Shown here: one piece after another, positions 33,792 to 58,201 of the stretch
Numbering within the stretch: position 1 is the first letter of the stretch
Layout: each line of letters opens with the position of its first letter
Assembly: GCA_944392585.1 (NCBI GenBank)
Contig: CALXXA010000002.1
Span: 1-58,427, forward strand
Source of the DNA: an uncultured Alphaproteobacteria bacterium
GTDB taxonomy: Bacteria > Pseudomonadota > Alphaproteobacteria > CAAHEQ01 > UBA3637
Length of the DNA: 58,427 nt
Direction of reading: 5' to 3'
Translations under genes and position numbers: made by a program
Notes under the pieces: generated by a model
Seen by the model: only the letters and a program-made list of their open reading frames with translations
Databases searched by the model: none
What the model was told of the DNA's origin: nothing

Positions 33792-33882
33792 GTTGAGCTC
33801 TCCTAATGTTTAATGTTTTTATATATCAATAAATTAATTTTATCATAAAAAAGATATTTTGTCTATTTCTTTTTGCCCCTTC

Positions 33883-34533: not shown

Positions 34534-34564
34534 TTTTCCCTCTTTAATAAAAAAACTACAAAAT

Positions 34565-34597
34565 ATTATAGACGAATGTTATTTTTAAGTCTATAAT
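34565..34597 (+). promoter_or_regulatory. candidate promoter with overlapping 9-bp inverted-repeat operator upstream of the VirB6-like array
   Basis: attatagac (34565-34573), 15 nt, then gtctataat (34589-34597), a perfect inverted repeat. The right arm contains TATAAT (34592-34597). TAGACG (34569-34574) sits 17 nt upstream as a -35 candidate. The ATG is at 34631. Confidence 0.4.
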
Positions 34598-34630
34598 TAA
34601 TGCAAAAATATTTTTAATTAAACGAGGCTG

Positions 34631-36334: not shown

Positions 36335-36345
36335 ACAGAACAACC

Positions 36346-37602: not shown

Positions 37603-37609
37603 GGGAAAA

Positions 37610-40435
37610 ATGATAAAGAAAACATTCTATCTTCTCATTCTTTTCCTTCTGGTTTTTTTAGCGGCTCATATTAACACTCAGTATTTTCCTTACATTGGAA
37701 TTACCGCTGTTTTTATCATTATCCTGTGCCTTGGATATGCCATTCATAAAACAAAATTATTTTATTATTCTAAAAAAGTTATTGTGTTCTTATTATTTTC
37801 TCTTTCCTTTTTTTACTTAACCTCGGCGTCTCCTGTTCTTGCACAAACATCAGAAACAACTCAGTCTGGGGGAACATTTTTTAAAAGTTTATTTTCTCAA
37901 GATGCAAAGCCATCTTTGGAAGAACAAATTCAAAAAGTTGGAAACGAGTTCCATAAAATATGGCGAATTTTGCCTGAAACCAGGACAGAAGAACAACAAA
38001 AAAAATATGATCAACTCAAGAAGCAATTAGAAAATCTTCTAAAGAAAAAAGCGAAAGAAGATAAAAAAGAAAAAGCAAAAACTCAATGTAAAACACCGCA
38101 TGAACTCTTGAGAGAAGTACAAAACGATTGTTGGTCTTGTGATTTAACTTATATAATTATTGAAGCTATAGATGGCGTCGCCACTTCCTTTTTTAATAAG
38201 GTTCAAGAAAATAACTACGCTTTAATCATCCTGGGTCTTGGATTTGCTTTTTGGTTATTATTCAATATCTTAAAATTTTTCACCTCTTGGCTTTTGACAG
38301 ACTTAGGAGAAGTATGGACAACGATATTTCGAAAACTTATACTCGTTATTTTCGCGGCGGCTCTTCTTATTTCTCCAATACGTCAAGTTTTTGATTGGAT
38401 ATTAACCCCCTTCTTTTCTTTTTCCGCTGCTATCAGTATGGAAATAGCAAACATCTCCACATTTGGGAATAACGTTTCTAAAATTGATGAATCGCTTTCA
38501 AAAACTTTAGAAGTTAACCCTATTGAATGTTCTTACTGCACAGCCATGAAAAAATCAGACGCAGCAGTTCCCTCTCCTAAAAACATAGAGAACGTTGATG
38601 TTCTAAACGCCCCTTCCATTCAAGACAGAGTTTTTTCATCTCAAATAAAAAACTCTATGTTATGTATCGTATGCTCGTTATATCGAACTATCTCGCCTCC
38701 TATTATTATCGGACAATCATTACTATGTTACTCCACTACCGAAGGAGCCTATTCTTTCCCTCCGAAATGGATTATCGGAGTTCCTGTCAGATTACAAATT
38801 CCCAACATGCTGATGTATACAGCGGGAATTGTCATTATTATCGTATTTATTCTTATAACCATTTTATTTCCACTTTTTTTAGTTGATGCCTTCTTTAGAA
38901 TAGGGTATGTTGCGACATTAATGCCCTTTTTGATTGTTGCATACGTTTTTGAATCAACTCGTATATATGCCAAAAATTCATTTAGAATAGTTCTACACGC
39001 TTTAAGCACCTTTTTATTTGTATCGATTATGTTTACTCTGTTGGTTCAAGTATTCTATACATCTTTAAGTTCCGACACACAAGCCATTACAAACGCGCTG
39101 GCCAGCAATGATATAAAAAGCTTATTTAACATATTTGTCCTTAATTCAGGATTTTTCCCTCTTTTAATGTGTATTTTTATTGGTTTTTTAGCCGTAAAAA
39201 TGATGTTTTTAATGGACGAGATAAGTAGTGAGTTAACAGCTATTAACCTGGAGAGCACTGGTGGAATTGGAGCCCTTATATCCGCTATAGATGTTATTAA
39301 ATCCCCAATGCCCGTAGTCAGTGAAATTTATGATGAAACCTGGGGATATGTCGGTTCGAAACGTGTCCCTCTTAACGCTCCGGAACTTCCCAAATATCAC
39401 AGTGCGGAAGCAAAATCTCGCCTTATTCGTTTAAAATCATATCAGAAATTTAACAAATATGCGGACAGCGTTGTTTCCTTCGGAGCCTCTCCGGCTCTTT
39501 CTGTTGAAGAAGAAATTCAAGCCACCGGAAATGTTTTTTCTAATAAAATTTACAATTTTAGAAGATCTATCATTCACAAAATTAATGAAATCGGTAAAAA
39601 TTCCACTGAAGGATTAAAAAGAACTGGGACAGAAATTAATTCTTTATTATCTAATATCTTTGGTCTGAACAATGTTTCTAAGACACCTTATTCCCAAAAC
39701 AAAGATCAAAAAACAAACAAAAAAGTTCAAAATATCTTCAAGCATCAAGGCTCCTCGAATATATTAAATAAAATACTAAACCTTTTTGCTCTCGGTAGTA
39801 ATGTTATCATCCTCCCTTTAATCGTACTAACCAAAACAGTCCAATTTGCTTCTTTACTTTCCGTTAAAGCCTTATTTGGAGTAATTTCCTTTGTGACACG
39901 CAAAGGAACTTATGTAACGCAAAAGACAGCTTCAGCGGCTATATCACTTCCCGGAAGATTAACTGCTTTAGGCCTCCAAAAAGCCGGTAAGTTAATTGCT
40001 CAAAACAAATACTTCACCAAAACAGCCGGAGCTACAAATAGTCTTGTTCTTGGAGCCATCGCCGGGACTGTTTTGGGAATTGCTCATTTCGCCTCCGGAC
40101 TAGGCAGTCTTGTTCCGGGATCCTCTCGTTCCAAAAAAGGTTTTTCTTTGGAAGGGAGAGATTTATCTTCTAAAGAAAATGAACTTCGAGTCGCTCGAAT
40201 TAAATTACAAGATTTGCATGATAAACGCCGCTCTATAGAAGTCAAACGTTATCTCTTGCTCGGTAAAGGGGTCTTATCTGAGAAAGACACTGCGGAATTA
40301 GCGTCAATAGAATCCGATTGGTCTCAAATGCTGAGCGAAATTACTTATTTTGAATCTATTGTAGCTTCTTTAGAATCAGAAGTATCCCACTTAAAAGAAA
40401 ATATTAGAAAACATCACAACGAACAGAAATCTTGA
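37610..40435 (+). CDS. VirB6/TrbL-like polytopic membrane protein, paralogue C, with long N- and C-terminal extensions
   Basis: 941 aa. CWSC at aa 174-177, FAFWLLFNILKF, and FFRIGYVATLMPFLIVAYVFESTRIYAKNSF (compare the VirB6 YIFDRTRDIAAKW region). A C-terminal extension of about 400 aa ends in a coiled coil, an architecture like the enlarged VirB6 paralogues of Rickettsiales. Confidence 0.6.
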   Translation: MIKKTFYLLILFLLVFLAAHINTQYFPYIGITAVFIIILCLGYAIHKTKLFYYSKKVIVFLLFSLSFFYLTSASPVLAQTSETTQSGGTFFKSLFSQDAKPSLEEQIQKVGNEFHKIWRILPETRTEEQQKKYDQLKKQLENLLKKKAKEDKKEKAKTQCKTPHELLREVQNDCWSCDLTYIIIEAIDGVATSFFNKVQENNYALIILGLGFAFWLLFNILKFFTSWLLTDLGEVWTTIFRKLILVIFAAALLISPIRQVFDWILTPFFSFSAAISMEIANISTFGNNVSKIDESLSKTLEVNPIECSYCTAMKKSDAAVPSPKNIENVDVLNAPSIQDRVFSSQIKNSMLCIVCSLYRTISPPIIIGQSLLCYSTTEGAYSFPPKWIIGVPVRLQIPNMLMYTAGIVIIIVFILITILFPLFLVDAFFRIGYVATLMPFLIVAYVFESTRIYAKNSFRIVLHALSTFLFVSIMFTLLVQVFYTSLSSDTQAITNALASNDIKSLFNIFVLNSGFFPLLMCIFIGFLAVKMMFLMDEISSELTAINLESTGGIGALISAIDVIKSPMPVVSEIYDETWGYVGSKRVPLNAPELPKYHSAEAKSRLIRLKSYQKFNKYADSVVSFGASPALSVEEEIQATGNVFSNKIYNFRRSIIHKINEIGKNSTEGLKRTGTEINSLLSNIFGLNNVSKTPYSQNKDQKTNKKVQNIFKHQGSSNILNKILNLFALGSNVIILPLIVLTKTVQFASLLSVKALFGVISFVTRKGTYVTQKTASAAISLPGRLTALGLQKAGKLIAQNKYFTKTAGATNSLVLGAIAGTVLGIAHFASGLGSLVPGSSRSKKGFSLEGRDLSSKENELRVARIKLQDLHDKRRSIEVKRYLLLGKGVLSEKDTAELASIESDWSQMLSEITYFESIVASLESEVSHLKENIRKHHNEQKS

Positions 40436-40464
40436 AAATTACATTTTCAATTAACTCTAACGTT

Positions 40465-40491
40465 CTTTAAAAGAGCTTTCTCCTTTTAAAG
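40465..40491 (+). terminator. weak AT-rich hairpin after the VirB6-like array
   Basis: ctttaaaag (40465-40473) pairs with cttttaaag (40483-40491) around a 9-nt loop, 30 nt after the stop of paralogue C. The stem is AT-rich and the T-run is poor. Confidence 0.3.
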
Positions 40492-40591
40492 AAATAACTT
40501 TTTCAAAAAAAAATTCATTTTTTTTATTTTTTGTCTATTTTCTCATGAAAAAATCTGCTATAAAGAAATACGATAAAAAGGAGGTAAATCT

Positions 40592-41563
40592 ATGGAAGAA
40601 ATTATTTTCCCTAATCAAATTCGTATGATTCGCCGAACACGCGGTAAAACGATGAAAGAAATTGCCAGCATTTTGAATGTTAGTTTATCTGCCATCAGCA
40701 AAATAGAAAAAGGATATCGACGTATTGATGATAAACAATTGACACAAATAGCTCAATTTCTAGCATGTCCCAAAGAAAGTATTTTTGTTGTGGAACAAAC
40801 CTCTCAACCGGAAGTCTTACAGGCTTGGCAAAGGGAACAAAACCGGCGGAAACAAATTAATGAAAAAAGTGGTTTAAAGACATTAGGTGCCGGATTAAGG
40901 TACATTCGCGGAGAAAAGATGCTTACATTATATGATGTTTCTAAGAAAGCTGGAATGACTCTTTCCGTATATCATAGAATAGAGATCGGACAACGTGAGG
41001 TTACAGAGGAACAATTAAATAATATTGCTCATGCTTTAGGTTATACTCTAGAAACACTCCAGATAAGAATTTATGAGTTGGACATGGCCGGCTCTTTACA
41101 GGAATTTAAAAAAATAGGGAAATCCGGAATTTTCCACCCTAAAGGAGGATATAATGATCTACCCGTTACTTCTCTCGCTATGCATTTCTATCAACGAATC
41201 CCCGTTATAGGAATATGTGAAACAAACGGAACTGTTATCATTCCAGATCAAACATCTCTCCCACAAATAGAACCTAGTTTCATAAATAAAGAATCTCTTT
41301 ATGGTATTCAAATTAATTCAACCTGTCTTGGCTTCTCATTCCCACAACATCGAACCACTCTTATTGCCGATAAAAGCCAACGCCCATCAGATGGAGATAT
41401 AGCTCTATTTCATAAGGGAACACAATCTATTGCGGTTGGAATATGTAAAAAAGAAAATAATTCAGACATCTTTTTTATTCAGAAGAATCCAGATCGCAAA
41501 ATAAAATTATCCAGATCGGAATTGGAAAAATTAGATAAAGTAACTTATATTCAAATTACGTAG
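40592..41563 (+). CDS. XRE-family regulator with two HTH domains and a C-terminal S24/LexA-like domain lacking an obvious catalytic Ser
   Basis: 323 aa. HTH 1 is IRMIRRTRGKTMKEIASILNVSLSAISKIEKGYR. HTH 2 is LRYIRGEKMLTLYDVSKKAGMTLSVYHRIEIGQR. The C-terminal roughly 130 aa begin IPVIGICETNG and end with a beta-rich region like CI/LexA C-domains, but I see no GDSM-type Ser motif. AAGGAGG RBS. Confidence 0.75.
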   Translation: MEEIIFPNQIRMIRRTRGKTMKEIASILNVSLSAISKIEKGYRRIDDKQLTQIAQFLACPKESIFVVEQTSQPEVLQAWQREQNRRKQINEKSGLKTLGAGLRYIRGEKMLTLYDVSKKAGMTLSVYHRIEIGQREVTEEQLNNIAHALGYTLETLQIRIYELDMAGSLQEFKKIGKSGIFHPKGGYNDLPVTSLAMHFYQRIPVIGICETNGTVIIPDQTSLPQIEPSFINKESLYGIQINSTCLGFSFPQHRTTLIADKSQRPSDGDIALFHKGTQSIAVGICKKENNSDIFFIQKNPDRKIKLSRSELEKLDKVTYIQIT

Positions 41564-41586
41564 CTATAATGGACAAAGGGTAAATA

Positions 41587-42384
41587 ATGGCTGATATTAA
41601 AACATGGAAAAAAGATTTCCTCGCTGAGCGTAAGAAAAAAGAAGAAGCTCCTTCTTCCATTGCTCAACGTTTTATCAATATCTACCGCCAGCTCCCAATC
41701 CTAGGAGAAGAAGCTGTTAAAAAATATAATGACTTATTAATATCACAAACAACCGCAGAAGTTTTAATCGCTCTAACAAACTTACCAGGCGGGGAAGAAA
41801 TCAGAGAGTATATCAATTTTTTAAAACATAAGAATTTAGAAGAAAGAGAAGAACTGGAATCGAGTCAAAAAGCAAACTTATCTCTCCCCAAAGCAGAAGA
41901 ATTATCTCCTTTGTGGGAAACATTGGGAATAAATTCCGTTTCTCATGTAAATGCACAAACGGCCGTCAATGATGTTGTTCAAACTGTTATTTCGATAGGG
42001 AAAAAAGATATTGAAAACCTAAAAAAACAAATTCTTCCTTTTATTCATCGACAAAATGAAGACGTTTCCAACATCTTAAAGTATATCATCGTTGATTCTG
42101 ATATAGAAAAAATGCAACAGACTCTAACCCAGGCTATAAAGAAAATATCTTCCCTTCAAGAAAATAATGAACGCATTTTGAATTCTTTATTTGAACAAGC
42201 GGAAGTTAATCGTCTTTTTTCTCAAGAAGATATAATTTCCTCAAAGGAGAAACAAGAAAATAATATAAATACGCCTAAAAAATCTTCTCCGTCAAAAGCT
42301 GTTTTTACAGCGACAACAAAAAATAAACGGCTTCATCCATTACCAAAATATTCCGTTGATTTAATAGAGGAGGAAGACAGCTGA
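41587..42384 (+). CDS. hypothetical coiled-coil protein
   Basis: 265 aa, Glu/Lys-rich helical, starting 23 nt after the regulator gene. No family recognised. Confidence 0.5.
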   Translation: MADIKTWKKDFLAERKKKEEAPSSIAQRFINIYRQLPILGEEAVKKYNDLLISQTTAEVLIALTNLPGGEEIREYINFLKHKNLEEREELESSQKANLSLPKAEELSPLWETLGINSVSHVNAQTAVNDVVQTVISIGKKDIENLKKQILPFIHRQNEDVSNILKYIIVDSDIEKMQQTLTQAIKKISSLQENNERILNSLFEQAEVNRLFSQEDIISSKEKQENNINTPKKSSPSKAVFTATTKNKRLHPLPKYSVDLIEEEDS

Positions 42385-42445
42385 TTTTAAGCAATCATTA
42401 ACCTTCTTATTTTATATATAAATATAGTTTTTATGTGAGGAAAAA

Positions 42446-43951
42446 ATGCCAACCCAGGAACAACTAAAACCACTAATAGAAGCTTTAACAGCATACAAAC
42501 AAGATCAACAAACGTTACAACCTGTCGTAGATACGGCTTTGACTATTTATGGGCAAGATTGGACAACTGCTTTAGCAAACGATCTAGAAAATTTACAAAA
42601 CGTTGACACGACAACCTTAACATTTTTAAAAGAAAAAGCAAATCATGCTATTTATTACTATGGAGCCCTGACTGCTTGGGAAGAGGCTCATCATTACTTA
42701 AATTCAACAAATCCTATTGATCCAAACTTATTAAAAGAACGCTTGCCTATTTTAGAATATTGGTTATCTTTATTCGGAGATGAAGGAAACAAGGTAAATG
42801 GAAAATTAAAGCAACTTTTTGTTAATATTTCTCCTGTACAACCGGGGGAAACTTCTTCACTGTCTTCCGAAACATTGAAGGGGGATTCGGATATCTCTGC
42901 AGACAATCAAGAGACTTCCTCTATTCAACAACTACATAATGACCGATCCGAAGTAGAACCGGTTGCGGAAATGACATCTTCTTTTGAAACCTCTGACAGT
43001 TCTTCCCCCGCCGTGAAATTAGAGGAGAAAGAATCCTTACCCCAAAGCTCCCTTTCGGAGGAGTCCGCTCCTTTTTATCCAGCAAATATTTCCGAAGATA
43101 CTCGTTTAAGTGAAGAAGATATACTAGAAGCAACCGCTTATTCTTCACAACCTGAATTGGGAAATATAGAAAATCAAGAAGAAAATACAAGTTTTCCAGT
43201 CCAAGAAGAACCGGATTCGGAATATCCGCTAGAAGAACAAAATACTTCTTTTAACGAAACAGAACCTTTAGAAGATGAGTTGATAGAAACGTCTGAACAG
43301 CCGACAGTTTCTGTTCCAGAAATCGTTCAGGAAGATCTAAATGTGGTTCCATCGCAAGAGATATCCGAAAAAGGAGATTCTTCAAAGAATTGGGAAATAA
43401 ATAATTATTTAAAAGAAAAAGAACTATATGAACAAGTTGTCGCATGGGTTACGGCGAAATGTATTCGCATGGGAAATATTGAATTAACAGCCTATCCACA
43501 TTATGGTTTTATTGTCGATTTAATGCAATCTTTAAAAGAGAATATCCAAAATTTATTAAGCAACCCACTACTTACCGAGATTATAGAAACACAGTTAAAA
43601 GAAGGTCGTAAAGGATTAGAAGGTTTTTTAAAAGTTCTTGAAACGGAATTAGCACACTTACCCGAGATAGAGAGTCAACCTTCGGATGCGATTATAGAAG
43701 GAATAGATGCGCGCTCTATTCTAGGGCAAATAGACACCAGCAATAAAAAAGAATATTTAGGTCCGGCTCCAGATGGATTTGAGTTGATTGAGGATCCTTA
43801 TGAGAAAAAAGAAGATATCGCCAAAGAAGATCTCTTAAAAGCATATGAAAAAGCCGAAGAAGATACGGGAGATTCAATAAACCATTTAAATATTCTGGAA
43901 GAAGAAACTTCACAATCTCAAGAAACCCAAACAACACCACGGAAAGGATAA
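42446..43951 (+). CDS. hypothetical highly acidic protein
   Basis: 501 aa. The central roughly 200 aa are extremely Glu/Ser/Pro-rich and look disordered, flanked by helical N- and C-terminal domains. No signal peptide seen. Confidence 0.5.
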   Translation: MPTQEQLKPLIEALTAYKQDQQTLQPVVDTALTIYGQDWTTALANDLENLQNVDTTTLTFLKEKANHAIYYYGALTAWEEAHHYLNSTNPIDPNLLKERLPILEYWLSLFGDEGNKVNGKLKQLFVNISPVQPGETSSLSSETLKGDSDISADNQETSSIQQLHNDRSEVEPVAEMTSSFETSDSSSPAVKLEEKESLPQSSLSEESAPFYPANISEDTRLSEEDILEATAYSSQPELGNIENQEENTSFPVQEEPDSEYPLEEQNTSFNETEPLEDELIETSEQPTVSVPEIVQEDLNVVPSQEISEKGDSSKNWEINNYLKEKELYEQVVAWVTAKCIRMGNIELTAYPHYGFIVDLMQSLKENIQNLLSNPLLTEIIETQLKEGRKGLEGFLKVLETELAHLPEIESQPSDAIIEGIDARSILGQIDTSNKKEYLGPAPDGFELIEDPYEKKEDIAKEDLLKAYEKAEEDTGDSINHLNILEEETSQSQETQTTPRKG

Positions 43952-43956
43952 ACAGA

Positions 43957-45450
43957 ATGCATATGAGATATATTTTAATGACTTGCATTTTAGCTTCTAC
44001 AAGTCTCGCTTTATTAGCGTGTCAACATCGAACAGCATCTTTACCTTATATGACAAAGGCTTCTTATATATCCTCTCCGGATTTTTCGAAGTCTGAAACA
44101 GGATTTTTATCGTCTCCGAGTTTAGAAAAACAAAACCCACTTCAAACTTCATCATCTTTTTATACTCCGCAAAGAAATTCTTCATACAAAGGAGTAAATA
44201 ATGCGGGAATAGTTCCTGTTATTAAGGGGAAAGAAGATTCGATCCATCCGCAAGGAGAGAATAATTATTATAGCTCACGACAGACTCGGTCGGCAGAGTT
44301 AACGCCTCAGGATATAAGAACGTCGCCACAAAAGCAGCTGCCTTGCACTCAATCGAAAGTTCCCCCTATGTTGCAAGGACAAACTTCAACGGACATGGTT
44401 AATATAGAAACGCCAATGCGCTGTCGTGTTCCGGAGCCGACATCTCGCATTATTTCAGATATTCCTTTAACACAGGGAGATTTTGAACTGACTCGAGTAG
44501 AAGAAAATGATGCTCTGCCACGTTATGAAGTCAATGGATATACCTTTGATAATCAACCTTTAGATATGGCGATTCAAGTTCTTGTATCCGAAGCAGATAT
44601 AAATGTCTATTCAGATGATGGCTTATTTCCCGATATGTCGGCACAAGATATCAGAGGAGAATTATCAGCTGTTATAGAAGAACTGACAGATTCGGCAGAT
44701 GCCTATGCTCATTATGACGCGAGTAAAAAAAGGTTGTATTTGTCTCACTGGGCTCGGTTTAGATTAAAAGTCCCCGGAGGATATATAGGAATGTATGCAG
44801 TTTTAGACGCCTTAAGAGGAGCTAATATTACGAACGTACAACCTGATTGGGGACAAAATGAACTTTATTTCCGTGTGACGAAATCACAAGAAGCCATTAT
44901 TCGCCGTTTAATTTCTTATTTGAAAGAAGATCCTCGTCTTTTAATGCTTGACATAAACGTTTATAAAGTTTACCCCAAAGGGGGTGCAAATATCTCATGG
45001 AGAAACGTTATTCAAAGCTTCGGAGATTATAAAGTGAATATGTCCATAAACGGTCTGCAAGGACGAATGATTATAACCGATCATCAAGAAGAGCAAAATT
45101 CATTTTTAAATAATCTAAAAGCATACGCTCAAGTTGATTTAGTTTCAAAAGGCGTCGCTGTTATGCCTAACGGATGGAAAGTTCGTTTTGACATAGGTCA
45201 GTGTTCATTTACAAACACTCCAGAAAAAGATTTATCTCTGCTATTACAGAGCAAAATACAAAGCACAGACCGCATAGAATCGAACATTGCGTTAGATACA
45301 GTGAATGGAGAAGTAACATCTTTTTACTCATTTTACAGTATAGATGATGATTTAAATATTGTCGGTATCCCCGGCACAGTTTTCAATCAAAGCACCGTCA
45401 TAGAGTATTTCATTACGATGAAACCTCGGATTATGCGTCTTATAAAATAA
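43957..45450 (+). CDS. outer-membrane lipoprotein with secretin-like N0 and C-terminal domains (type IVb PilN/BfpB/TcpC-style)
   Basis: 497 aa. Lipobox SLALLAC and a disordered Ser/Pro/Gln linker. FDNQPLDMAIQVLVSEADINVYSDD...LSAVIEELTDSADAYAHYDASKKRLYL resembles a secretin N0/NolW-like domain. LMLDINVYKVYPKGGANISW ... FLNNLKAYAQVDLVSKGVAVMPNGWKVRFDIGQ ... NIVGIPGTVFNQSTVIEYFITMKPRIM follows the order of the secretin-domain consensus. Recognition is by eye only. Confidence 0.5.
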   Translation: MHMRYILMTCILASTSLALLACQHRTASLPYMTKASYISSPDFSKSETGFLSSPSLEKQNPLQTSSSFYTPQRNSSYKGVNNAGIVPVIKGKEDSIHPQGENNYYSSRQTRSAELTPQDIRTSPQKQLPCTQSKVPPMLQGQTSTDMVNIETPMRCRVPEPTSRIISDIPLTQGDFELTRVEENDALPRYEVNGYTFDNQPLDMAIQVLVSEADINVYSDDGLFPDMSAQDIRGELSAVIEELTDSADAYAHYDASKKRLYLSHWARFRLKVPGGYIGMYAVLDALRGANITNVQPDWGQNELYFRVTKSQEAIIRRLISYLKEDPRLLMLDINVYKVYPKGGANISWRNVIQSFGDYKVNMSINGLQGRMIITDHQEEQNSFLNNLKAYAQVDLVSKGVAVMPNGWKVRFDIGQCSFTNTPEKDLSLLLQSKIQSTDRIESNIALDTVNGEVTSFYSFYSIDDDLNIVGIPGTVFNQSTVIEYFITMKPRIMRLIK

Positions 45451-45466
45451 AATAAAAGGGAAAGAA

Positions 45467-46138
45467 ATGACTATAGAAAAGAAACCTATATTAAAAGCAC
45501 CGATGCCTCCTTCTGGAATAAAGTCTCCGGCGGAAGCGAAGATATCCGCCTATACTCCAAGCATGAAAACAAATTCATTACCGAATGAAGTTGCATCAGG
45601 GAATCCGGGACAAAATACATCTATGCCACAACCTTCGTATGGATTAAGGGGAGAAGATTCTTCTGGGAATAAGCCGGAGAATTTTTCAAAGAATCAATTG
45701 ACGGAGGAACAACCCTCTGTATCGCCCGGTTCTGGTCTATATGATAATAATTTTGCGGCTCAATTTAATTTACCGCCCTCTATATTGACGACCAAAGCGA
45801 TGAGTTTTATTCTTGCGGGAGTATTCTTTTTTGGGATTATATTTGGAGCGAATGTTTTCGGAACCAGTACAACGACACATGGTCTACAAGGAGTTATTTT
45901 GAATCCTGGAGTTCCAGAAGGAAGGAAGCGCTGTGGGATAGCCGAAAAGACAGAAGGATGTGTTTTATTTATGATGAATGCATCACAACGGGACAGAGAA
46001 GTTCGTTCATTTTATGAACAAGCAGCGGCGATAACGAATGTTCCGGCGTATACCATAGAAATGGGAAATATCACATATGCGTCAACAATTATTCGTCCTG
46101 GCTATTTTGCACAAATAAATATTCCTCCGATACGGTAA
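45467..46138 (+). CDS. bitopic membrane protein (disordered N-terminus, one TM helix, about 90-aa C-terminal domain)
   Basis: 223 aa. Single TM helix MSFILAGVFFFGIIFGANVF. It starts 16 nt after the secretin-like gene and is the last gene of that operon. Confidence 0.45.
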   Translation: MTIEKKPILKAPMPPSGIKSPAEAKISAYTPSMKTNSLPNEVASGNPGQNTSMPQPSYGLRGEDSSGNKPENFSKNQLTEEQPSVSPGSGLYDNNFAAQFNLPPSILTTKAMSFILAGVFFFGIIFGANVFGTSTTTHGLQGVILNPGVPEGRKRCGIAEKTEGCVLFMMNASQRDREVRSFYEQAAAITNVPAYTIEMGNITYASTIIRPGYFAQINIPPIR

Positions 46139-46227: not shown

Positions 46228-46983
46228 TTACTCACTGGTAAATTTGCGACAAAATGCCTTACCTTCTGAAACAATCTTGAAACGCTGCGGATAACATACC
46301 TCGGCGGTTACACCATTACCGCCTGCCATTTCAAATAAGCGTAAACCTTCACACTTCAATAAAGATTCTTTTCTTTTTGACCAATCACACTCTTTTTTCG
46401 CAACATCCGTGTTCCCCAAATTCTTTTCACACGAAGAACTTTCCTGCCCATCGATCTTCTTCTTCTCATAGTAAGAAGGCCTCTCGGCCTCATGAGCACA
46501 CCTACAAAAAGGCAAGTTATATCTCGTTACATTTTGTCCACTTCCTTCACAATCCCAACCATCCTCATTATATCCTTTTATATTAAAACACGTCTCATTC
46601 TCCATAGAAAAATCCGGGGTAGCCGTAAATTTTATCTCTAAATAACCTGTTCCAAGCGGATCGGCCGTTACAATCCCTCCATTATTTATATCGTCAAAGG
46701 GGAACGCAAGCAAATTGTCCCTATTACCTTTCGCCCATTCTTCCACATCATGTTTATAAATCTTATGGATTAAATCTGGAGTTATCTCATCTGCCGTTAA
46801 CAATTTTGCACCAAAAGAATTACACCATGATGCTCTGTTTTTCGCATCTAAACTTATTGTGCTTACATAATAGATATAACCATCTATTTCTGCTGTTTTA
46901 TATGCAAGTACACCATTATTATCTGCAAGTACACCATTATTATAAGAAAAGAACAAAAGTATCAGTAAAAATATTTTTCGCAT
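46228..46983 (-). CDS. secreted Cys-containing protein with lectin-like W-C-x3-G motif
   Basis: 251 aa. Signal peptide MRKIFLLILLFFSY and 10 Cys. IDGYIYYVSTISLDAKNRASWCNSFGAKLLTADE resembles IGGYVEEGKYIRSDIMLNWWSAGAWCLANGKKWASIGD in the C-terminus of the 709-aa pilin-like protein. GGGAGG RBS lies 18 nt after the stop of the 955-aa gene, so the two are probably co-transcribed. Confidence 0.55.
   Translation of the reverse strand: MRKIFLLILLFFSYNNGVLADNNGVLAYKTAEIDGYIYYVSTISLDAKNRASWCNSFGAKLLTADEITPDLIHKIYKHDVEEWAKGNRDNLLAFPFDDINNGGIVTADPLGTGYLEIKFTATPDFSMENETCFNIKGYNEDGWDCEGSGQNVTRYNLPFCRCAHEAERPSYYEKKKIDGQESSSCEKNLGNTDVAKKECDWSKRKESLLKCEGLRLFEMAGGNGVTAEVCYPQRFKIVSEGKAFCRKFTSE
46903..46944 (-). 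repeat. 21-bp tandem duplication in the 5' coding region of the 251-aa gene
   Basis: (a/c)tgcaagtacaccattattat occurs twice in tandem (46903-46923 and 46924-46944). It encodes NNGVLAD-NNGVLAY directly after the signal-peptide hydrophobic core. Confidence 0.9.
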
Positions 46984-47001: not shown

Positions 47002-49869
47002 TTAATAATTATTAGTTTGATTCACACATTTCCCCACAAACTTCATTTGCTTGCCTTCATTTTTCATGATAAATCCCTTTGCCAAAGATGCTATACTACA
47101 TACTTGCCCTTCATTACACTTGGTGTCGGAATCATCTCCTAAAGTTACCTTTGATTCACCATCCTCCTTATCCGTACCAATGGTAAGGTTTTTTAAATTA
47201 TCCTCATTCTCATTCACATCTGCCCACTTTCCTATATAAAGAAGTCCGCTAGAATTTTTAGTCGGGGAATCTTCCCCAAAATACGCTGCAAGAGTCTTGA
47301 CAAGATAACAAAATTTTAGGGGTTTGCTTTTCGCTGCTAGTTGAGCTTTTGCTTTTTCTTCTCCACTCGCCCTTATCGAGAAAGAATTACTCGGGCTTCC
47401 CCATCGTACACATTGTTGTGGGAATGGGTCTTTGAAGTATGTATTAGTCGAGCAATAACATCCTACACCCGGACATTCACTAAAAAAGAACTCTCGATAA
47501 CACTCACCAGCTGCATCAAGACTACATTCTTTTTCTGCTGGATAATACCAGGGTACATTCGTTTCCTTCCCACAAGCTACTCCGATATTGTTTTCATGGT
47601 ACCCTTCTCTATACTGTAAACACGCTGGATAATAACCGCTCTTCTGTGTATTATACACATCGTCGTACGTAGTCTTCTTTAGGTTACTAATTCCGCCATT
47701 AATGGCAGATATACAATAACCCAAATCCGTCGGTATAGTCACGGTTAAAGTACAATCATAATCTCCGGAAGCCTCTTCTAAACAAACTTGACTTTCATCA
47801 TCCCAATAATATCCTGATTTCGTACAACAGCTATCTGTGTTATAATATATCATTTCTTCAGAACAACATTTATTTTCACCAGGTATCCATGTTCCTCCTG
47901 CCTCTATACACCCGTCTTGAGTAGTTATTGACGTACACCCCTCTTTTTCCGACCATTTTCCCCCGGTTTTAGAACAACACGCATTTGTATTCGTCTCAAT
48001 TAATGACGGGGTACAACATTGATTTGACGCACCAATCCAAATTCCTCCCAAAGCAGAACAATCCTCTTCATTATCAGGAATATCAGTATCCAAATCAAAA
48101 CTACATCTCTGATCTAGATTAGGTTTGTCACAACATATAGTCTCTTCTTCTCCAGTATCTGTATCTTGAACAACTTTAGTTATTGTACAACACTCCCCAT
48201 CAACAACACCTGTCGCAGTAGAAGGACAACATGTTCCATTAATAACATTTTTCCTGTCAGCAGGGCAACAAACAATGTCACTATCAACGATTACAGGCTC
48301 TGTATCTTTTTCACAGCACTTAAAATTTTCTTCATTAATAAACGCCCAATTTCTACCCGCCGCCTCACAACATTCTTCTTTCTTCTCAATAGTACTTTCT
48401 TCCGAAAGAGTCTCATAATCTTTCGGACAACAATAGTTGTTCACAGCTTGATTCAGGTTTTGATTCAGGTTACAGCACATATTGTCTTTGCTTGTAAAAA
48501 CATACTCAGAACTGTTGATACAACACATTCCATTAGCATCGTCTGTTTTAACCATTGTCACCTTATCAACCCATACGCCTTTCTCATGCCCATCATAAGC
48601 GTTTTCACAACAAACCTGTGTATTTATGTTGCTCGGATCACAACATTGTTCACCCACCCAATGATAACCATTCGCTTCACAACACATTCCATTAGCATCG
48701 TCTGTTTTAACCATTGTCACCTTATTAACCCAATGATGCTTATTCGCTTCACAACATGCCTTTGAATCCGTTTTCCAAGTTTTATTATCATTTGTACAAC
48801 ACTCTCCATTTTTAATAAACTCACTATGGCAACAAAAAACTTGATTTCCTGATCCTGAAGGCTGATCGCCTTTATTACAACAAATCCCCTCATCATTAAA
48901 CCATTCATACAACCCTATACAACACATTCCATTAGCACCGTCTGTTTTAACCCCATCCTCATCGACCCAATGATAATTATTCGCTTCACAACATGCCTTA
49001 GTATCTGTGTCGTCCTTAGCACAACATGTCCCCTCAGCCCATACGCCTCCGTTTGCTTTACAACATGCCTTAGTATCTGTGTCGGCCTTAGCACAACATA
49101 TTCCATTAGCATCGTCTGTTTCAACCCCATTCTCATCAACCCAAGAACCTGCCTCATCATGCCCATTATAGGTGTTTTCACAACAAACCTGTGTAGTTAT
49201 GTTGTTCGGATAACAACATTGTTCACCCACAGCATAGCTACCCTCCGGACACTCAGAAGGAGGATCAATAGGATCAATAGGAACAATAGGATCAGGATTC
49301 GGTGTCGTAGGATCCGGGAAAAGATCCGAAACCGATGTATCATACGCAAAAACAAATGTATTCCTCTTTCCTTCCGAACACTCTGTAACTGTAAGAGATC
49401 CCGTACACTCTGAAATCCCTTTATCCCCTTGACATAAAAAAACTTCTCTTTTTATCGGAAATTCTTCTCTAACCATCTCTTGCAACCTCTTGCAAGCTCG
49501 ACCGGGAACTTCCTTAACTATAACATAAAATCTATTCCCTTTCCCCTTCTCATGCGCATAGTTAAAACCTCCTTGGTTCTCTTTGAAACCAACCAAATTA
49601 TACTTTTCCCCTGTCTCATAATTCTTCAAAGCCGGATTACTAAACGATTCCACGGCTCTTAAATCCACTTGCTTATATATCTGATTCGCTTGGTGCTTGG
49701 ACATCGCATATGCATATGCAACCAAAAAAAGAATACTCAATATCGCTACAACAGCTAAAACACCTAATATCTCTATAATGCTCCGCCCTTTTTCCGACTT
49801 GACAAAATGTCTCTTAAAATATGATAAATGACGATTCTGTTCCAATTTTTCCTTCAAATGTCTAAGCAT
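47002..49869 (-). CDS. giant Cys-Cys-repeat protein with type IV prepilin-like N-terminus (paralogue 1)
   Basis: 955 aa. A 28-aa basic leader ends in Gly, then RSIIE (Glu at +5) and a roughly 22-aa hydrophobic helix (ILGVLAVVAILSILFLVAYAYA), which is a class III/prepilin signal. There follow a small pilin-like domain, the Pro-rich linker PDPTTPNPDPIVPIDPIDPP, about 490 aa holding 27 CC dipeptides, and a unique roughly 265-aa C-terminal domain. AGGAGG RBS. Confidence 0.7.
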   Translation of the reverse strand: MLRHLKEKLEQNRHLSYFKRHFVKSEKGRSIIEILGVLAVVAILSILFLVAYAYAMSKHQANQIYKQVDLRAVESFSNPALKNYETGEKYNLVGFKENQGGFNYAHEKGKGNRFYVIVKEVPGRACKRLQEMVREEFPIKREVFLCQGDKGISECTGSLTVTECSEGKRNTFVFAYDTSVSDLFPDPTTPNPDPIVPIDPIDPPSECPEGSYAVGEQCCYPNNITTQVCCENTYNGHDEAGSWVDENGVETDDANGICCAKADTDTKACCKANGGVWAEGTCCAKDDTDTKACCEANNYHWVDEDGVKTDGANGMCCIGLYEWFNDEGICCNKGDQPSGSGNQVFCCHSEFIKNGECCTNDNKTWKTDSKACCEANKHHWVNKVTMVKTDDANGMCCEANGYHWVGEQCCDPSNINTQVCCENAYDGHEKGVWVDKVTMVKTDDANGMCCINSSEYVFTSKDNMCCNLNQNLNQAVNNYCCPKDYETLSEESTIEKKEECCEAAGRNWAFINEENFKCCEKDTEPVIVDSDIVCCPADRKNVINGTCCPSTATGVVDGECCTITKVVQDTDTGEEETICCDKPNLDQRCSFDLDTDIPDNEEDCSALGGIWIGASNQCCTPSLIETNTNACCSKTGGKWSEKEGCTSITTQDGCIEAGGTWIPGENKCCSEEMIYYNTDSCCTKSGYYWDDESQVCLEEASGDYDCTLTVTIPTDLGYCISAINGGISNLKKTTYDDVYNTQKSGYYPACLQYREGYHENNIGVACGKETNVPWYYPAEKECSLDAAGECYREFFFSECPGVGCYCSTNTYFKDPFPQQCVRWGSPSNSFSIRASGEEKAKAQLAAKSKPLKFCYLVKTLAAYFGEDSPTKNSSGLLYIGKWADVNENEDNLKNLTIGTDKEDGESKVTLGDDSDTKCNEGQVCSIASLAKGFIMKNEGKQMKFVGKCVNQTNNY
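48125..48838 (-). repeat. segment shared with the second pilin-like gene (copy in paralogue 1)
   Basis: 48125-48565 aligns by eye to 55618-56067 with about ten substitutions, one 3-nt indel and one 6-nt indel. 48725-48838 continues the match to 56068-56180. Paralogue 1 carries one extra unit of about 159 nt in between. Confidence 0.85.
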
Positions 49870-49980
49870 TCAAGCCTCCTATATTTACACCTATTGTACA
49901 ACATACACCATATTTCCATCCAGATGTCAAGCAATTTTAAAAAAAAATTCACTTTTACAATTCACAATAAACTATGAATT

Positions 49981-50022
49981 TAAAAAGAAAGAGAAGGTTT
50001 TAAAGACCTTCTCTTTTTTTTC
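49981..50022. terminator. rho-independent terminator downstream of tuf (copy 1)
   Basis: aaagagaaggt (49988-49998) pairs with accttctcttt (50006-50016) around a 7-nt loop. T-runs lie on both strands. It is 31 nt past the tuf stop. Confidence 0.8.
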
Positions 50023-54632: not shown

Positions 54633-56762
54633 CTATTTTACACAAATCGCGCGACCTCCTGAACTTCTAGATCCTAAAAAAGTCTCCGAATCACTTATTA
54701 TTTCTATTATTTTCCCGTTTTCTTCTATATATCCGCCTCCTTGTACTTGATATGCAACACCCTCCATTGAAGCAGTTGACGTCCATCCACTTATCTGAGC
54801 AGAAAATTCAGAACATTTTGAGTCTGCTATTTTTTTACATGCATCATCTTCAGTCAAACCCTCCCCTGTAGTTAAGCGCGTATAACATCCCAGATCCGTT
54901 ACAGATCCTCCCGCCCAATTCGGGCAAAGATCATCTCCGATGGATGCCCACTTTTTCCCGTTAGCAAGACACCAAGCTCCGGCACTCCACCAGTTCAACA
55001 TTATATCAGAGCGAATATACTTACCTTCTTCAACATAACCTCCTATCTGCTGACACGTACCATACAATGCTTTTGGGGTATCCGTTGTTAGCTTTTTTTT
55101 ACGATTTCTATCTTCATATTGTGCATTACAAAATGTATTTGGCGGGCAAGGAACCTGATAGCTTAACGCAAGTACGTTATTATGACTTGCTTTAGAACAA
55201 ACCGGAGCAGCAGAACTATTTACTTCCCCACCTTCACACCCTGTACTAAAGAACGGACCATTATCATATCCGTAGCTTGGACGACAATTAGTATTAAGTG
55301 CCGAGCAATCCTCTCCTGCACATTGCGGATCCATTGATGATACCCAACATATAGTTTCTTTTGTATTTAACTTACCAATAATACGACAGCTTGTTTCTGC
55401 AGTACATTTATCTTCTTCTTTTTCTCCGTTCCATGTATAGCCTGCCGCCTCACAACACATTTGAGTGTTCCGTATTCGGGTAAGAGTACAACAATATGGT
55501 GTTTCATTTTCCTTTTGAATCCATTCTCCATCTTCGGAAATACATGTTTCTTCATCTGTGGGAACAGGATCTTCTAAATCATTTTCTCCTTCATCTGTAC
55601 ACCGAGGATCCAAGGGATTGTCACAACATATAGTCACTTCTTCTCCAGTATCTGTATCTTGAACAACTTTAGTTATTGTACAACACTCCCCATCAACAAC
55701 ACCTGTCGCGGTAAAAGGACAACATGTTCCATTAATAACCTTTTTCCTGTCAGCAGGGCAACAAACAATGTCACTATCAACGATTACAGGCTCTGTATCT
55801 TTTTCACAGCACTTAAAATTTTCTTCATTAATAAACGCCCAATTTCTACCCGCCGCTTCACAACATGCTATTTTCTTCTCAATAGTACTTTCTTCCGAAA
55901 GAGTCTCATAATTTTTCGGACAACAATAAAAGTTGTTCACAGCTTGATTCAGGTTTTGATTCAGGTTACAGCACATACTGTCTTTGCTTGTAAAAACATA
56001 CTCAGAACTGTTGATACAACACATTCCATTAGCATCGTCTGTTTCTGTTTCAACCATTGTCTCCTTATTAACCCAATGATGATATTTCGCTTCACAACAC
56101 GTCTTTGAATCCGTTTTCCAAGTTTCATTATCATTTGTGCAACACTCTTCATTTTCAATAAACTCATTATGGCAACAAAAGCTCCCAAACATTTTGCCGT
56201 TAGGACAAGGATCAGGTTCTGGATCAGGGTCTGGAATATTTAAAGTCCCCCGAACACCTATGTCATACGCAAACACAAATGTATTGTTTTCTCCTTCTTC
56301 ACACTCGGAAACGGCTCCCATACATTCAGTGGCGTTCAAGTCTCCCTGACATAAGAAAACTTCTCTTTCTATCGGGAAATCTTCTAGGACCATTTTTTGT
56401 AACATTTTACATACTCTCACAGGAACCTTCTTAACAATCACATAAAATTTCTTATTAAACCCTTTCTCTTGTGAATAGGAAATATTACTCAGCTCCTTTT
56501 CAAATCCGATCAAATTATATTTTGCCCCAGGCTCATAATTCATCAAAGCCGGATTACTAAACGATTCCACTGCTCTTAAATCTACTTGCTTATATATCTG
56601 ATTCGCTTTATGCTTGGAAATCGCATATGTATATCCTGTAATAGCGGCTATGCTCAATATACCAATAATCGCTAAAACAGCTAATACCTCAAGCATACTT
56701 CGTCCAGTATCCGCTTTAGTCTTGTATGTTTTAACATAATTTTCTTTTAGATTCTTGAGCAT
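54633..56762 (-). CDS. giant Cys-Cys-repeat protein with type IV prepilin-like N-terminus (paralogue 2), lectin-motif C-terminus
   Basis: 709 aa. A 20-aa leader ends in Gly, then RSMLE (Glu at +5) and the hydrophobic helix VLAVLAIIGILSIAAITGYTYA. The same pilin-like domain as paralogue 1 follows (ANQIYKQVDLRAVESFSNPAL, FYVIVK, REVFLCQGD, NTFVFAYD), then the linker PDPDPEPDP and 14 CC dipeptides. The roughly 330-aa C-terminal region is unrelated to paralogue 1 and contains NWWSAGAWCLANGKKWASIGD. Confidence 0.7.
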   Translation of the reverse strand: MLKNLKENYVKTYKTKADTGRSMLEVLAVLAIIGILSIAAITGYTYAISKHKANQIYKQVDLRAVESFSNPALMNYEPGAKYNLIGFEKELSNISYSQEKGFNKKFYVIVKKVPVRVCKMLQKMVLEDFPIEREVFLCQGDLNATECMGAVSECEEGENNTFVFAYDIGVRGTLNIPDPDPEPDPCPNGKMFGSFCCHNEFIENEECCTNDNETWKTDSKTCCEAKYHHWVNKETMVETETDDANGMCCINSSEYVFTSKDSMCCNLNQNLNQAVNNFYCCPKNYETLSEESTIEKKIACCEAAGRNWAFINEENFKCCEKDTEPVIVDSDIVCCPADRKKVINGTCCPFTATGVVDGECCTITKVVQDTDTGEEVTICCDNPLDPRCTDEGENDLEDPVPTDEETCISEDGEWIQKENETPYCCTLTRIRNTQMCCEAAGYTWNGEKEEDKCTAETSCRIIGKLNTKETICWVSSMDPQCAGEDCSALNTNCRPSYGYDNGPFFSTGCEGGEVNSSAAPVCSKASHNNVLALSYQVPCPPNTFCNAQYEDRNRKKKLTTDTPKALYGTCQQIGGYVEEGKYIRSDIMLNWWSAGAWCLANGKKWASIGDDLCPNWAGGSVTDLGCYTRLTTGEGLTEDDACKKIADSKCSEFSAQISGWTSTASMEGVAYQVQGGGYIEENGKIIEIISDSETFLGSRSSGGRAICVK
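55618..56180 (-). repeat. segment shared with the first pilin-like gene (copy in paralogue 2)
   Basis: Aligns to 48125-48838 (see that feature). It encodes MCCINSSEYVFTSKD.MCCNLNQNLNQAVNN..CCP..YETLSEESTIEKK..CCEAAGRNWAFINEENFKCCEKDTEPVIVDSDIVCCPADRK.VINGTCCP.TATGVVDGECCTITKVVQDTDTGEE.TICCD. Confidence 0.85.
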
Positions 56763-56890: not shown

Positions 56891-58201
56891 CTACCTGTCA
56901 AATTGCCTTTCCTTTAATCTCTTCCTCAAGGCAACCGAAAGTTTCTCTGGAGCATTTTTCCCTATTCGCTCTTTCCCAAACAAGGATCTCCGTAAAGAAT
57001 GATCTACATATTTCCCTCTTTCATCCGCACTCATTAAACGAATTTCTTTCGCTTTTTTAGAACGTATGCGAGATATTTCTTGCGCTCTCATAGTTTCTTC
57101 ATTTTTTTCAGTCAAAATTCGTTCCGTTTCAGTATATCTTAATACCTCTGCCCACTTTTGAGCCGAACGATTATATCTATCTTTGACCAGTATGTCCGAT
57201 TCATTATCCACCAACAACTGCACCATGTCAGAATCCCCTCTTTTAACAGCTTCAATTAATCCTGTGCTGTTATCATTATTAAAATCATTTATATTTGCTT
57301 TTTCTTCAATAAGTCTTTGGACCATATTTTTATTCCCTGTCCTACACGCTTTTATAAATAACGTTTCTCCCTTCTTGTCTTTTATATAAATATTTGAATT
57401 TCTTTCTAATAAGATACGAAATAAACTTTCATGTCCTCTCTCTACAGCATACATCAAAGACGTATATCCTTCTTTATCTGTCGCATTCACATCCGCCCCT
57501 TTATTAATCAATAAAAGAGCAATATCCTTATGCCCGTATTTAATTGCTTCCATCAAAGAAGTGGTTCCATCTTTATCCTTTTTATTAATATTCTCTTTTC
57601 TTTCCAACAACAATTCAACAATCTTAAAATAACCTTTTTGAGAAGCTCTCATCAAAGATCCTCTTTTATTGATATCTTCACACTTGACATCCGCTCCCTT
57701 CTCAAGAAGCATCTGGACAATTTTTAAATTACCGGTTTCTACCGATTTCATTAACACCGTACGATTATTTTGATCTTTAGCATTTACATCAGCTCCTTTT
57801 TCTAAAAGTATCTGAATGGTTTCTTCAAAGCCTCCTTTAATAGCTTCCATTAAAGCCGTAATTCCATACTTGCTTCTATTGTTAATATCAGCCCCTTTTC
57901 CAATTAATACTTGTAATATATTTGTACGACCTGCTCCCGCAGCTTTCATCAATATCGTATCTCCATATTTATCTCTCGTATTAATATCTGCCCTTTTTTC
58001 TATTAATTCATTGACTTTCTCCAAAGAAACTTTTCTCCAATCAAGTGAAAGTAATTCTTTTGTCGCCTCTTCACGACACTTATTATTCCTTGGCATCATC
58101 AAATAGGCTTTTTTAAGAATCTCATCCGAAGCACCCGCATATTGAAGTTTTTCCAAATCTTTTTCCGTATACACATGTTCTAAGTCAAATTTTTGTAACA
58201 T
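56891..58201 (-). CDS. ankyrin repeat protein
   Basis: 436 aa. About nine tandem ANK units (GDTILMKAAGAGRTNILQVLIGKGADINNRS, GITALMEAIKGGFEETIQILLEKGADVNAKD, and so on), followed by a basic helical tail. Confidence 0.9.
   Translation of the reverse strand: MLQKFDLEHVYTEKDLEKLQYAGASDEILKKAYLMMPRNNKCREEATKELLSLDWRKVSLEKVNELIEKRADINTRDKYGDTILMKAAGAGRTNILQVLIGKGADINNRSKYGITALMEAIKGGFEETIQILLEKGADVNAKDQNNRTVLMKSVETGNLKIVQMLLEKGADVKCEDINKRGSLMRASQKGYFKIVELLLERKENINKKDKDGTTSLMEAIKYGHKDIALLLINKGADVNATDKEGYTSLMYAVERGHESLFRILLERNSNIYIKDKKGETLFIKACRTGNKNMVQRLIEEKANINDFNNDNSTGLIEAVKRGDSDMVQLLVDNESDILVKDRYNRSAQKWAEVLRYTETERILTEKNEETMRAQEISRIRSKKAKEIRLMSADERGKYVDHSLRRSLFGKERIGKNAPEKLSVALRKRLKERQFDR

Follow-up and report, generated by a model that had tools for sequence, protein, structure and literature searches.

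A predicted modular type IVb-like pilin with a galaxin-like di-cysteine stalk, encoded by an uncultured alphaproteobacterium

The stretch of 58,427 nucleotides (nt) at positions 1-58,427 of contig CALXXA010000002.1, assembly GCA_944392585.1 (hereafter, the window), which comes from a low-GC (~35%) uncultured Alphaproteobacteria bacterium, encodes GcrA, Pol I, GroEL, and the str operon. On its minus strand, between tuf and unrelated genes, lies an open reading frame (ORF) of 955 amino acids (aa) at 47002-49869, which begins with an ATG start codon and whose product is the subject of this analysis. Because its reading frame is conserved in six metagenomic homologues, we take the 955-aa ORF to be a real gene. 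The intrinsic terminator of tuf lies upstream of it (50016-49988), and a consensus scan of the gap at 49870-49988 called no canonical sigma-70 promoter. An earlier, preliminary description, made by reading the sequence, had proposed a protein composed of a pilin module, a linker, a Cys-laddered stalk, and a distal domain, and this overall design agrees with the sequence, in which we distinguish the following features.

47002-49869, minus strand: whole gene, 955 aa, predicted modular type IVb-like pilin with a galaxin-like Cys-Cys (CC) repeat stalk (ORF and translation; frame kept in six homologues)
49875-49880, minus strand: Shine-Dalgarno sequence AGGAGG, 5 nt 5' of the ATG (direct sequence reading)
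49786-49869, minus strand: leader peptide, aa 1-28, basic (isoelectric point, pI, 10.3), ending in ...SEKG; predicted to be cytoplasmic and to be cleaved after Gly28
49324-49785, minus strand: pilin module, aa 29-182, beginning with R+1-S-I-I-E+5, with a hydrophobic α1N helix and a small α/β head containing 4 Cys (family profile against the PDB; AlphaFold2, AF2; TIGR02532 in a relative)
49252-49323, minus strand: Pro-rich acidic linker, aa 183-206, LFPDPTTPNPDPIVPIDPIDPPSE, 37.5% Pro (composition; predicted local distance difference test score, pLDDT, <50 in the full-length model)
47782-49251, minus strand: di-cysteine repeat region, aa 207-696, with 27 CC, 12.2% Cys, and a pI of 4.2 (CC count against shuffles; PF24748; internal DNA repeats; AF2)
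47005-47781, minus strand: C-terminal domain, aa 697-955, with 14 Cys and without a recognisable family; conserved only in the homologues P0001-P0004, at 56-100% identity

The N-terminus was examined for a class III signal, which comprises a hydrophilic leader ending in Gly or Ala and 20-25 mainly hydrophobic residues, often with a Glu5 (PMC10191384), the residue that serves subunit docking in filaments (PMC10191384). The 28-aa leader of the 955-aa protein, MLRHLKEKLEQNRHLSYFKRHFVKSEKG (pI 10.3), ends in Gly28 and is followed by RSIIE, with Glu at +5, and then by a 22-residue hydrophobic stretch, ILGVLAVVAILSILFLVAYAYA, so that every element of the prepilin signal listed in the preliminary description is present. 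The same description had read the long leader and the non-Phe residue at +1, here an Arg, as type IVb traits, and had placed a small pilin-like domain behind the helix; the first proposal is backed by Bundlin, PilS, BfpA, and TcpA matches of relatives and of the family profile, and the second by (i) TcpA-led profile matches, (ii) a confident AF2 model, and (iii) the passing of the TIGR02532 cutoff by the relative P0006.

When a family profile that includes the 955-aa protein was compared with the PDB, TcpA (8uhf) was the best match (E 4.5e-4), with an alignment that spans the helix and the strand containing the first conserved Cys, and 17 of the 18 matches were type IV pilins. Distant members, retrieved by a word-indexed search with the N-terminal profile, carry Pfam Bundlin (PF05307) and PilS (PF08805), and a helix-trimmed alignment of these bundlin-like members matched BfpA (1zwt) in the PDB at E 2.5e-16 and PilS at E 4.7e-8, as well as CofA and TcpA. 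Matches of these heads to BfpA and PilS, made with the helix removed, argue that the clade encodes bona fide type IVb-type pilins, which begin with the same G↓RSM signal as the family studied here (G↓RSMxEML in the bundlin-like clade-mates; the arrow marks the predicted cleavage position). Moreover, AF2 modelled residues 22-187, from 22 aligned sequences, with a pLDDT of 86.5 and a predicted template modelling score of 0.76, as an N-terminal helix of 49 residues that leads into a four-stranded sheet accompanied by short helices, i.e., as a pilin lollipop. We therefore read the N-terminal ~180 aa as a putative type IVb-like class III signal with its pilin module, the head of which is a divergent, small pilin variant and not a bundlin domain. 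The leader and cleavage site of BfpA read ...YEKG↓LSLIE. Leaders of BfpA and PilS (PF05307, PF08805) end in (E/Q)-x-G, as does ...SEKG↓RSIIE in the 955-aa protein, whereas the head of the latter is smaller (~100 residues after α1), is not detectably bundlin-like, and is followed by 770 more residues.

Most of these additional residues belong to the di-cysteine region. The protein contains 78 Cys, of which 54 form the 27 CC dipeptides counted in the preliminary description and confirmed here (aa 218-682); when the protein was shuffled 2000 times, such dipeptides numbered 6.2 on average and 16 at most. Their start-to-start spacing, previously put at 8-25 residues, is slightly wider when measured (11-39 residues); along much of the stalk, a short spacing (11-13) is followed in turn by a long one (13-39), with a recurring unit of the form CC-x9-CC-(E/K)-(A/N)-N-x3-W-(V/A)...G-x-CC. 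The region also holds internal DNA repeats of 35-74 nt that are 85-98% identical. The module has a match among described families, namely the Galaxin-like repeats of Pfam (PF24748, Galaxin_repeat; cutoff 28 bits), with 27.5 bits in the whole 955-aa protein, just below the cutoff, and with 32.9 bits (E 7e-8), in two stretches, when the CC region is scanned alone. Precomputed PF24748 annotation is present on the homologues P0001 and P0004, and a PF24748 scan of other CC-rich family members (P0065, P0066, P0113, and P0170) gave no match.

Galaxins consist of tandem ~30-aa units with two di-Cys motifs, are extracellular, and have a pI of ~4.5 and a Cys content of 12-13% (PMC2726143). The stalk resembles the galaxins of corals, molluscs, and squid (PF24748) in its tandem di-Cys units, its acidity, and its Cys content (12.2%, against ~12-13%), and an export signal is present; however, galaxins carry a Sec signal and serve as matrix or immune proteins in animals, and a pilin module is found only in the bacterial protein. 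The match is marginal in the whole protein. Because animal galaxins conserve little beyond their Cys pattern, the likeness may reflect either common descent or convergence. A strong match of the repeats to a well-described family had been set down in the preliminary description as grounds for rejecting its proposal, and the PF24748 match is of that kind, but it names the CC module rather than explaining its mechanism, since galaxin repeats are without a solved structure or mechanism. Structure prediction, which the preliminary description had suggested as a check for a regular disulfide-laddered solenoid, could not show one: the full-length model was poor (overall pLDDT 53), and a Foldseek search with it was uninformative, whereas aa 210-580 were modelled by AF2 with moderate confidence (pLDDT 60-82) as a string of short β-hairpins and short helices, a model with which an extended stalk, stapled by disulfides, would agree, although the model is no proof of one.

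The C-terminal domain has no Pfam, NCBIfam, or PDB sequence match and an AF2 pLDDT of <50, and it is from its position that we presume it to be a distal binding module. It had been called unique; it is indeed a distinct region (aa 697-955) without a family match, but the protein itself is not unique, being a member of a family of thousands. A full-length search of 5.8 billion proteins returned six relatives only, all from ENA metagenome assemblies. P0001 is identical at all aligned positions and differs by one in-frame insertion of a 79-aa repeat block, while in P0002 the pilin module is likewise 100% identical, the CC region is rearranged, and identity in the C-terminal domain falls to 56%. 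P0005 is of the same type as a 709-aa paralog that lies in the window itself and was overlooked in the preliminary description; P0003, on a contig with the order tuf, ankyrin gene, P0003, is a chimera of a 709-type pilin module and a 955-type C-terminal domain; and P0006 joins the same N-terminal module to a quite different Cys-rich passenger.

54633-56762, minus strand: paralog, 709 aa, with the same pilin module, 14 CC dipeptides, and a different C-terminal domain (six-frame motif scan)

The N-terminus of this paralog reads ...TG↓RSMLEVLAVLAIIGILS, and the pair of genes brackets rpsL-rpsG-fusA-tuf. At the DNA level, the two are 95% identical over a 461-nt tract in the CC region and 73% identical in the pilin module. 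The C-terminal domains of both paralogs are without a Pfam or PDB sequence match; a C-type-lectin-like motif, WWSAGAWCLANGKKWASI, in that of the 709-aa protein has neither tool support nor a Pfam or PDB match and is no more than a lead. The differences among P0001-P0006, the contrast between 95% and 73% identity in the paralog pair, and the internal repeats together indicate that the carrier is stable, whereas the stalk and the distal domain are exchanged and resized between strains and paralogs. Such reshuffling of stalk and distal domain fits a variable surface-adhesin repertoire.

To place the gene in its family, 1.84 billion representative proteins were searched exhaustively with a profile of the N-terminal module (~190 residues); 5133 clusters matched with E <= 1e-3, of which 884 reached E <= 1e-10, with matches that mostly span positions ~15-170, i.e., helix and head. 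Among the best 144 new matches (median length, 395 aa; median Cys content, 5.9%), 143 carry a G↓RSM(V/I)EMLGVLAIIGVLS-like motif and 140 have Arg after the Gly, whereas at least five CC dipeptides occur in 15 (~10%), with 37 each in P0066 and P0170. In P0066 (1251 aa), a VWA domain follows the CC region. The family alignments A2 and A4 show no variation at Gly-1 and Glu+5, nor is there any at the head residue C126, which forms the conserved Cys pair of the pilin head with the nearly invariant C164. Further, the number of Cys is even in 111 of the 141 family representatives and in 88 of the 98 complete members of related loci (p 1e-16), as it is, at 78, in the 955-aa protein. These even counts suggest that essentially all of the Cys are paired in disulfides and, hence, that the proteins fold outside the cytoplasm.

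A scan of GTDB with the motif, at one genome per species, gave at least 600 matching stretches, of which 538 were confirmed and the best 80 loci were examined. By title, 78 of these 80 belong to metagenome-assembled genomes (MAGs) of uncultured Alphaproteobacteria, one to an 'uncultured proteobacterium', and one to Gastranaerophilales, and their isolate names point to the gut of yak, sheep, goat, buffalo, and roe deer, to rabbit, and to Hadza human samples. The Gastranaerophilales locus (L056, CANQML010000063.1) holds two family genes; its contig was binned with Candidatus Gastranaerophilales, which are non-photosynthetic relatives of cyanobacteria, and mis-binning or horizontal transfer is possible. 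We counted 114 family genes in 34 assemblies among the best 80 loci, as many as 15 of them within what was sampled of a single MAG, and 39 of the 98 complete genes encode at least 500 mature residues. Judged by these titles and names, the family is essentially confined to uncultured gut Alphaproteobacteria, where the gene is one of many paralogous genes that join the pilin module to a variable Cys-rich passenger. A literature search on the motif, the family, and RF32 pili found nothing relevant, and the sole source name that we met for family members is the generic 'GspH family protein'.

Pilins with grafted functional modules are an established class of >1200 proteins in 264 architectures, which is defined through IPR012902 together with a known InterPro domain and for which an 860-aa extreme is quoted (PMC8179133). 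The 955-aa protein has the layout of this class (pilin module, aa 29-182; linker, 183-206; galaxin-like repeats, 207-696; further domain, 697-955), but it departs from it by failing the N-methyl models, by exceeding the 860-aa extreme, and by carrying a galaxin-like module that is apparently outside the described architectures. The earlier statement that no characterised pilin with a CC ladder is known is right insofar as a galaxin-like stalk on a pilin is apparently undescribed, whereas modular pilins as such are well established and the protein is a member of a family. CofB (of the CFA/III pilus of enterotoxigenic Escherichia coli) and TcpB (Vibrio cholerae), which are thought to lie at the pilus tip and to mediate binding (PMC8179133), likewise combine a pilin module, a flexible linker, and extra domains, although theirs are β-rich, and the family profile matches their cognate major pilins, TcpA and CofA. 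They differ in being encoded once per compact pilus operon and in having extra domains other than Cys-rich repeats, whereas the family studied here is scattered and multiplied and has Arg+1 and a CC ladder; Foldseek ranks CofB (5ypz) only 44th (E 1.5) for our N-domain model. Streptococcus sanguinis PilB (pilin and vWA) and PilC (pilin and lectin) also graft a module onto a small pilin carrier, but they are type IVa proteins of a monoderm, encoded in a pil locus, whereas the 955-aa protein is type IVb-like and is not encoded in such a locus.

On balance, we lean towards the view that the gene encodes a modular type IVb pilin acting as an adhesin, a modest preference that applies to the reading as a whole, in which incorporation into a filament, cleavage, and surface exposure are all inferred. 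By the known biology of type IV pilins, the basic 28-aa leader and the hydrophobic helix would insert the protein in the inner membrane via Sec, with the leader in the cytoplasm, and a prepilin peptidase would cut after Gly28 to leave a mature N-terminus of Arg+1 with Glu+5. As the family profiles and the AF2 model suggest, the first ~150 mature residues would form the lollipop carrier, composed of a long α1 helix and a disulfide-bonded head. Through the Pro-rich linker, this carrier would bear an acidic, 490-residue, galaxin-like di-cysteine stack, which, when fully disulfide-bonded outside the cytoplasm, may act as a stiff, protease-resistant stalk, and the distal, Cys-containing domain of 260 residues would most likely be the ligand-binding part. 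If the analogy with CofB, TcpB, and S. sanguinis PilB is a guide, so bulky a subunit could be a tip adhesin, carried by a type IV filament or by a short pseudopilus. The VWA domain of P0066, like that of the adhesive pilin PilB (PMC8179133), supports this analogy.

Several observations weigh against this reading, and the first of them concern the pilin module itself. Neither the whole protein nor its N-terminal 80 aa alone matches TIGR02532 or Pfam N_methyl, the check that the preliminary description had suggested; the N-terminal 80 aa have weak matches only, to PpdD, ComGE, and GspH models (E 0.02-0.14). In the same scan of curated models, the paralog stays below the cutoffs (TIGR02532, 15.0 against 16.3; N_methyl, 17.0 against 21.2), whereas the relative P0006 passes TIGR02532 (22.7 against 16.3) and scores 19.3 with N_methyl. 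A Foldseek search with the N-domain model found no significant match in the PDB (best E 0.05), nor anything significant among viral structures. Solved pilin structures are mostly truncated and helix-dominated, and we therefore count the Foldseek null neither against the pilin fold nor for it. A head-only hhalign comparison of the subfamily of the 955-aa protein with the bundlin-like subfamily gave a probability of 10%, over 28 columns around F-x-I-x-V-x-x-V...C-x-x-L, because of which a bundlin domain is not claimed for the head. To our knowledge, Arg+1 is also without precedent among characterised pilins.

The other observations of this kind concern the genomic setting. We searched the window and ~1.33 Mb of fetched loci from ~34 related MAGs, an estimated ~2% of those genomes, by motif scans and by phmmer with E. 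coli GspC/D/E/F/G/L/M/O, and found no A24 prepilin peptidase, T2SSF platform, or secretin. As the sampled DNA is so small a part of the genomes, this null shows an absence of machinery genes from the neighbourhood of the pilin-like genes rather than from the genomes. The pilus machinery that the preliminary description had proposed to seek was not found in these sequences, save for a single machinery-like gene, which encodes a lone PilT/DotB-like ATPase of the T2SSE family (Pfam T2SSE, 99 bits) with the motifs GPTGMGKT, GEIRT, and SGHLVLSTIH; its best NCBIfam likenesses are PilT/PilU, ComGA, and DotB, all far below their cutoffs. It adjoins rimP-nusA-infB, an arrangement conserved across gut alphaproteobacterial MAGs, is sometimes named 'TadA' by NCBI, and in long contigs keeps its synteny with rimP-nusA-infB and has no partner genes. 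In L092, a 239-aa polytopic membrane protein overlaps the ATPase stop codon, but this pairing is not conserved. Known type IVb pilin genes are normally clustered in operons with biogenesis genes, and the 955-aa gene is not. All examined family genes, including the bundlin-like ones, lie singly among housekeeping genes, and the 955-aa gene and five other loci are orphans; clustering is not, however, a fully discriminatory property of type IV pilin genes (PMC10191384). Finally, family copies number dozens per genome, far above the usual set of minor pilins. The loci of the ATPase and of the orphan short pilins are as follows.

L041 16434-18317; L092 10001-11728; L094 10001-11233: lone T2SSE ATPase, often extended at the N-terminus by a long acidic segment
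L003 10001-10657; L096 10001-10660 and 17393-18112; L097 10001-10639: bundlin/PilS-like short pilins (~210-240 aa) with the G↓RSM signal, orphan

This setting is what would be expected if the pilin-like part were an inner-membrane anchor that never enters a filament, with the stalk and the distal domain working in the periplasm or envelope and the module kept after a pilus was lost, or in bacteria that never had one. The sampled sequence yields no peptidase, platform, or secretin, the genes lie outside pilus operons, one MAG has 15 or more copies in its sampled parts, which is unlike a set of minor pilins, and passengers of up to 1251 aa would be awkward cargo for a secretin. Nonetheless, a plain anchor needs neither an invariant Gly-1, Arg+1, Ser+2, and Glu+5, the last of which serves docking in filaments, nor a conserved head with a disulfide, and the bundlin-type major-pilin homologues that share the signal within the clade argue for real filaments. 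We consider such an anchor a serious possibility, if a doubtful one.

An ordinary Sec type I signal peptide, with a cut by signal peptidase I after A-Y-A (aa 53-55) and release of a soluble, Cys-rich protein to the periplasm or medium, would account for the AYAYA↓MSK that ends the hydrophobic stretch and resembles an AxA site, and for the scores of the protein below threshold on prepilin models. We nevertheless regard it as unlikely, mainly because thousands of proteins share the hydrophobic stretch down to its individual motifs, which is not true of Sec h-regions; moreover, 28 aa precede the stretch, an h-region of 22 residues would be long, the family at large does not keep the AYA (consensus GYxYAM), and the modelled helix runs uninterrupted into the head. 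A mis-assembled or decaying repeat gene, a long ORF without a functional protein, is suggested by the metagenome-type source, by internal DNA repeats of 85-98% identity that assemblers may collapse or expand, and by the difference of exactly one 79-aa block in P0001, but it is highly improbable given a frame that is open over 2.9 kb behind a strong ribosome-binding site, full-length homologues with the same module order in independent assemblies, an even Cys count, and CC positions that are conserved in the alignment.

Beyond the two paralogs, the window contains further genes that accompany them. The nearest is a short ORF directly downstream of the 955-aa gene.

46228-46983, minus strand: downstream 251-aa Cys-rich ORF with a Sec-type signal peptide, starting 18 nt after the stop codon of the 955-aa gene

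No terminator was called between the two genes, and the 251-aa ORF is probably co-transcribed with the 955-aa gene. The gene order is kept in the related locus L002, in which an orthologue of the 251-aa ORF (E 3.5e-143) follows the chimeric pilin-like gene. The 251-aa protein has no family matches, and a comparison showed no relationship to either paralog. Directly upstream of the 709-aa paralog, at 56891-58201 on the minus strand, is a gene for a 436-aa protein that consists almost wholly of ankyrin repeats and that is also found at L002 2847-4157 and in L087 and L088; three other contigs retain it beside a pilin-like gene, even where the surroundings are rearranged. The region of the str operon is itself rearranged, in that L002 has tuf and then the ankyrin gene with a single chimeric pilin-like gene, whereas the window has the ankyrin gene and one paralog before rpsL and the other paralog after tuf.

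A block at 30960-46138, on both strands, comprises ~11 genes without family matches. They encode, among others, an acidic protein of 501 aa, a lipoprotein of 497 aa, a bitopic protein of 223 aa, and, in tandem, three paralogous polytopic membrane proteins (567, 418, and 941 aa) that have CW(F/S)C and LIRLGFV-like motifs in common. Synteny with L015 and L002 extends over parts of the block, and the 348-aa ORF has a weak match to an ORF in L006, where a VirD4-like gene is also present. In the middle of the block (40592-41563, plus strand), a gene encodes two Cro/C1-type helix-turn-helix domains and weakly matches the model of the Wolbachia WO male-killing protein Wmk (38 bits; cutoff, 300). The block may represent an unrecognised envelope or secretion system beside the pilin-like gene; a cryptic pilus machine is another conceivable reading of this block without family matches. 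Elsewhere in the clade, L092 encodes, at 1-1007, a ~1980-aa protein with a YadA-type anchor (a trimeric autotransporter), the presence of which confirms that the envelope is diderm and shows that the clade has another kind of large adhesin.

Four aspects appear to be undescribed, namely (i) the galaxin-like CC stalk on a pilin, (ii) the near-invariant Arg+1, (iii) the size of the family and its scattered, multicopy expansion, and (iv) its confinement to uncultured gut Alphaproteobacteria. In Sulfolobus, the sugar-binding proteins of the bindosome use a prepilin-type signal, processed by the peptidase PibD, as a general sorting device for large extracytoplasmic proteins, and NCBIfam includes a model of the bindosome assembly ATPase, BasE. 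Bindosome cargo is archaeal and without a conserved pilin head, whereas the present family conserves a complete pilin module. As a tentative extension, which we hold with distinctly less assurance than the modular pilin-adhesin itself, a type IVb pilin module with an invariant Arg+1 might serve as a general display cassette, in which dozens of scattered genes per genome carry disulfide-rich passengers (galaxin-like CC ladders, EGF-like arrays, and VWA domains) that are shuffled by recombination. Display might then occur on a type IV filament or through unrecognised machinery, with a peptidase that is either a specialised A24 enzyme or a new one.

Modular pilins explain how filaments can have multiple functions, but only a handful have been studied, all from cultured pathogens. 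The proteins described here belong to a family, as yet without a name, that numbers several thousand sequence clusters or more in uncultured gut Alphaproteobacteria, in which one carrier is combined with many Cys-rich passengers. Among these passengers, the bacterial galaxin-like repeat offers a tractable structural system for a repeat known so far only from animal proteins of biomineralisation and immunity. Should the genomes prove to have no pilus machinery, the pilin module would have been reused for another purpose, which would likewise be new. If, on the other hand, the passengers are displayed on filaments, the family is probably the main repertoire with which these bacteria bind to their hosts or to particles in the rumen and hindgut.

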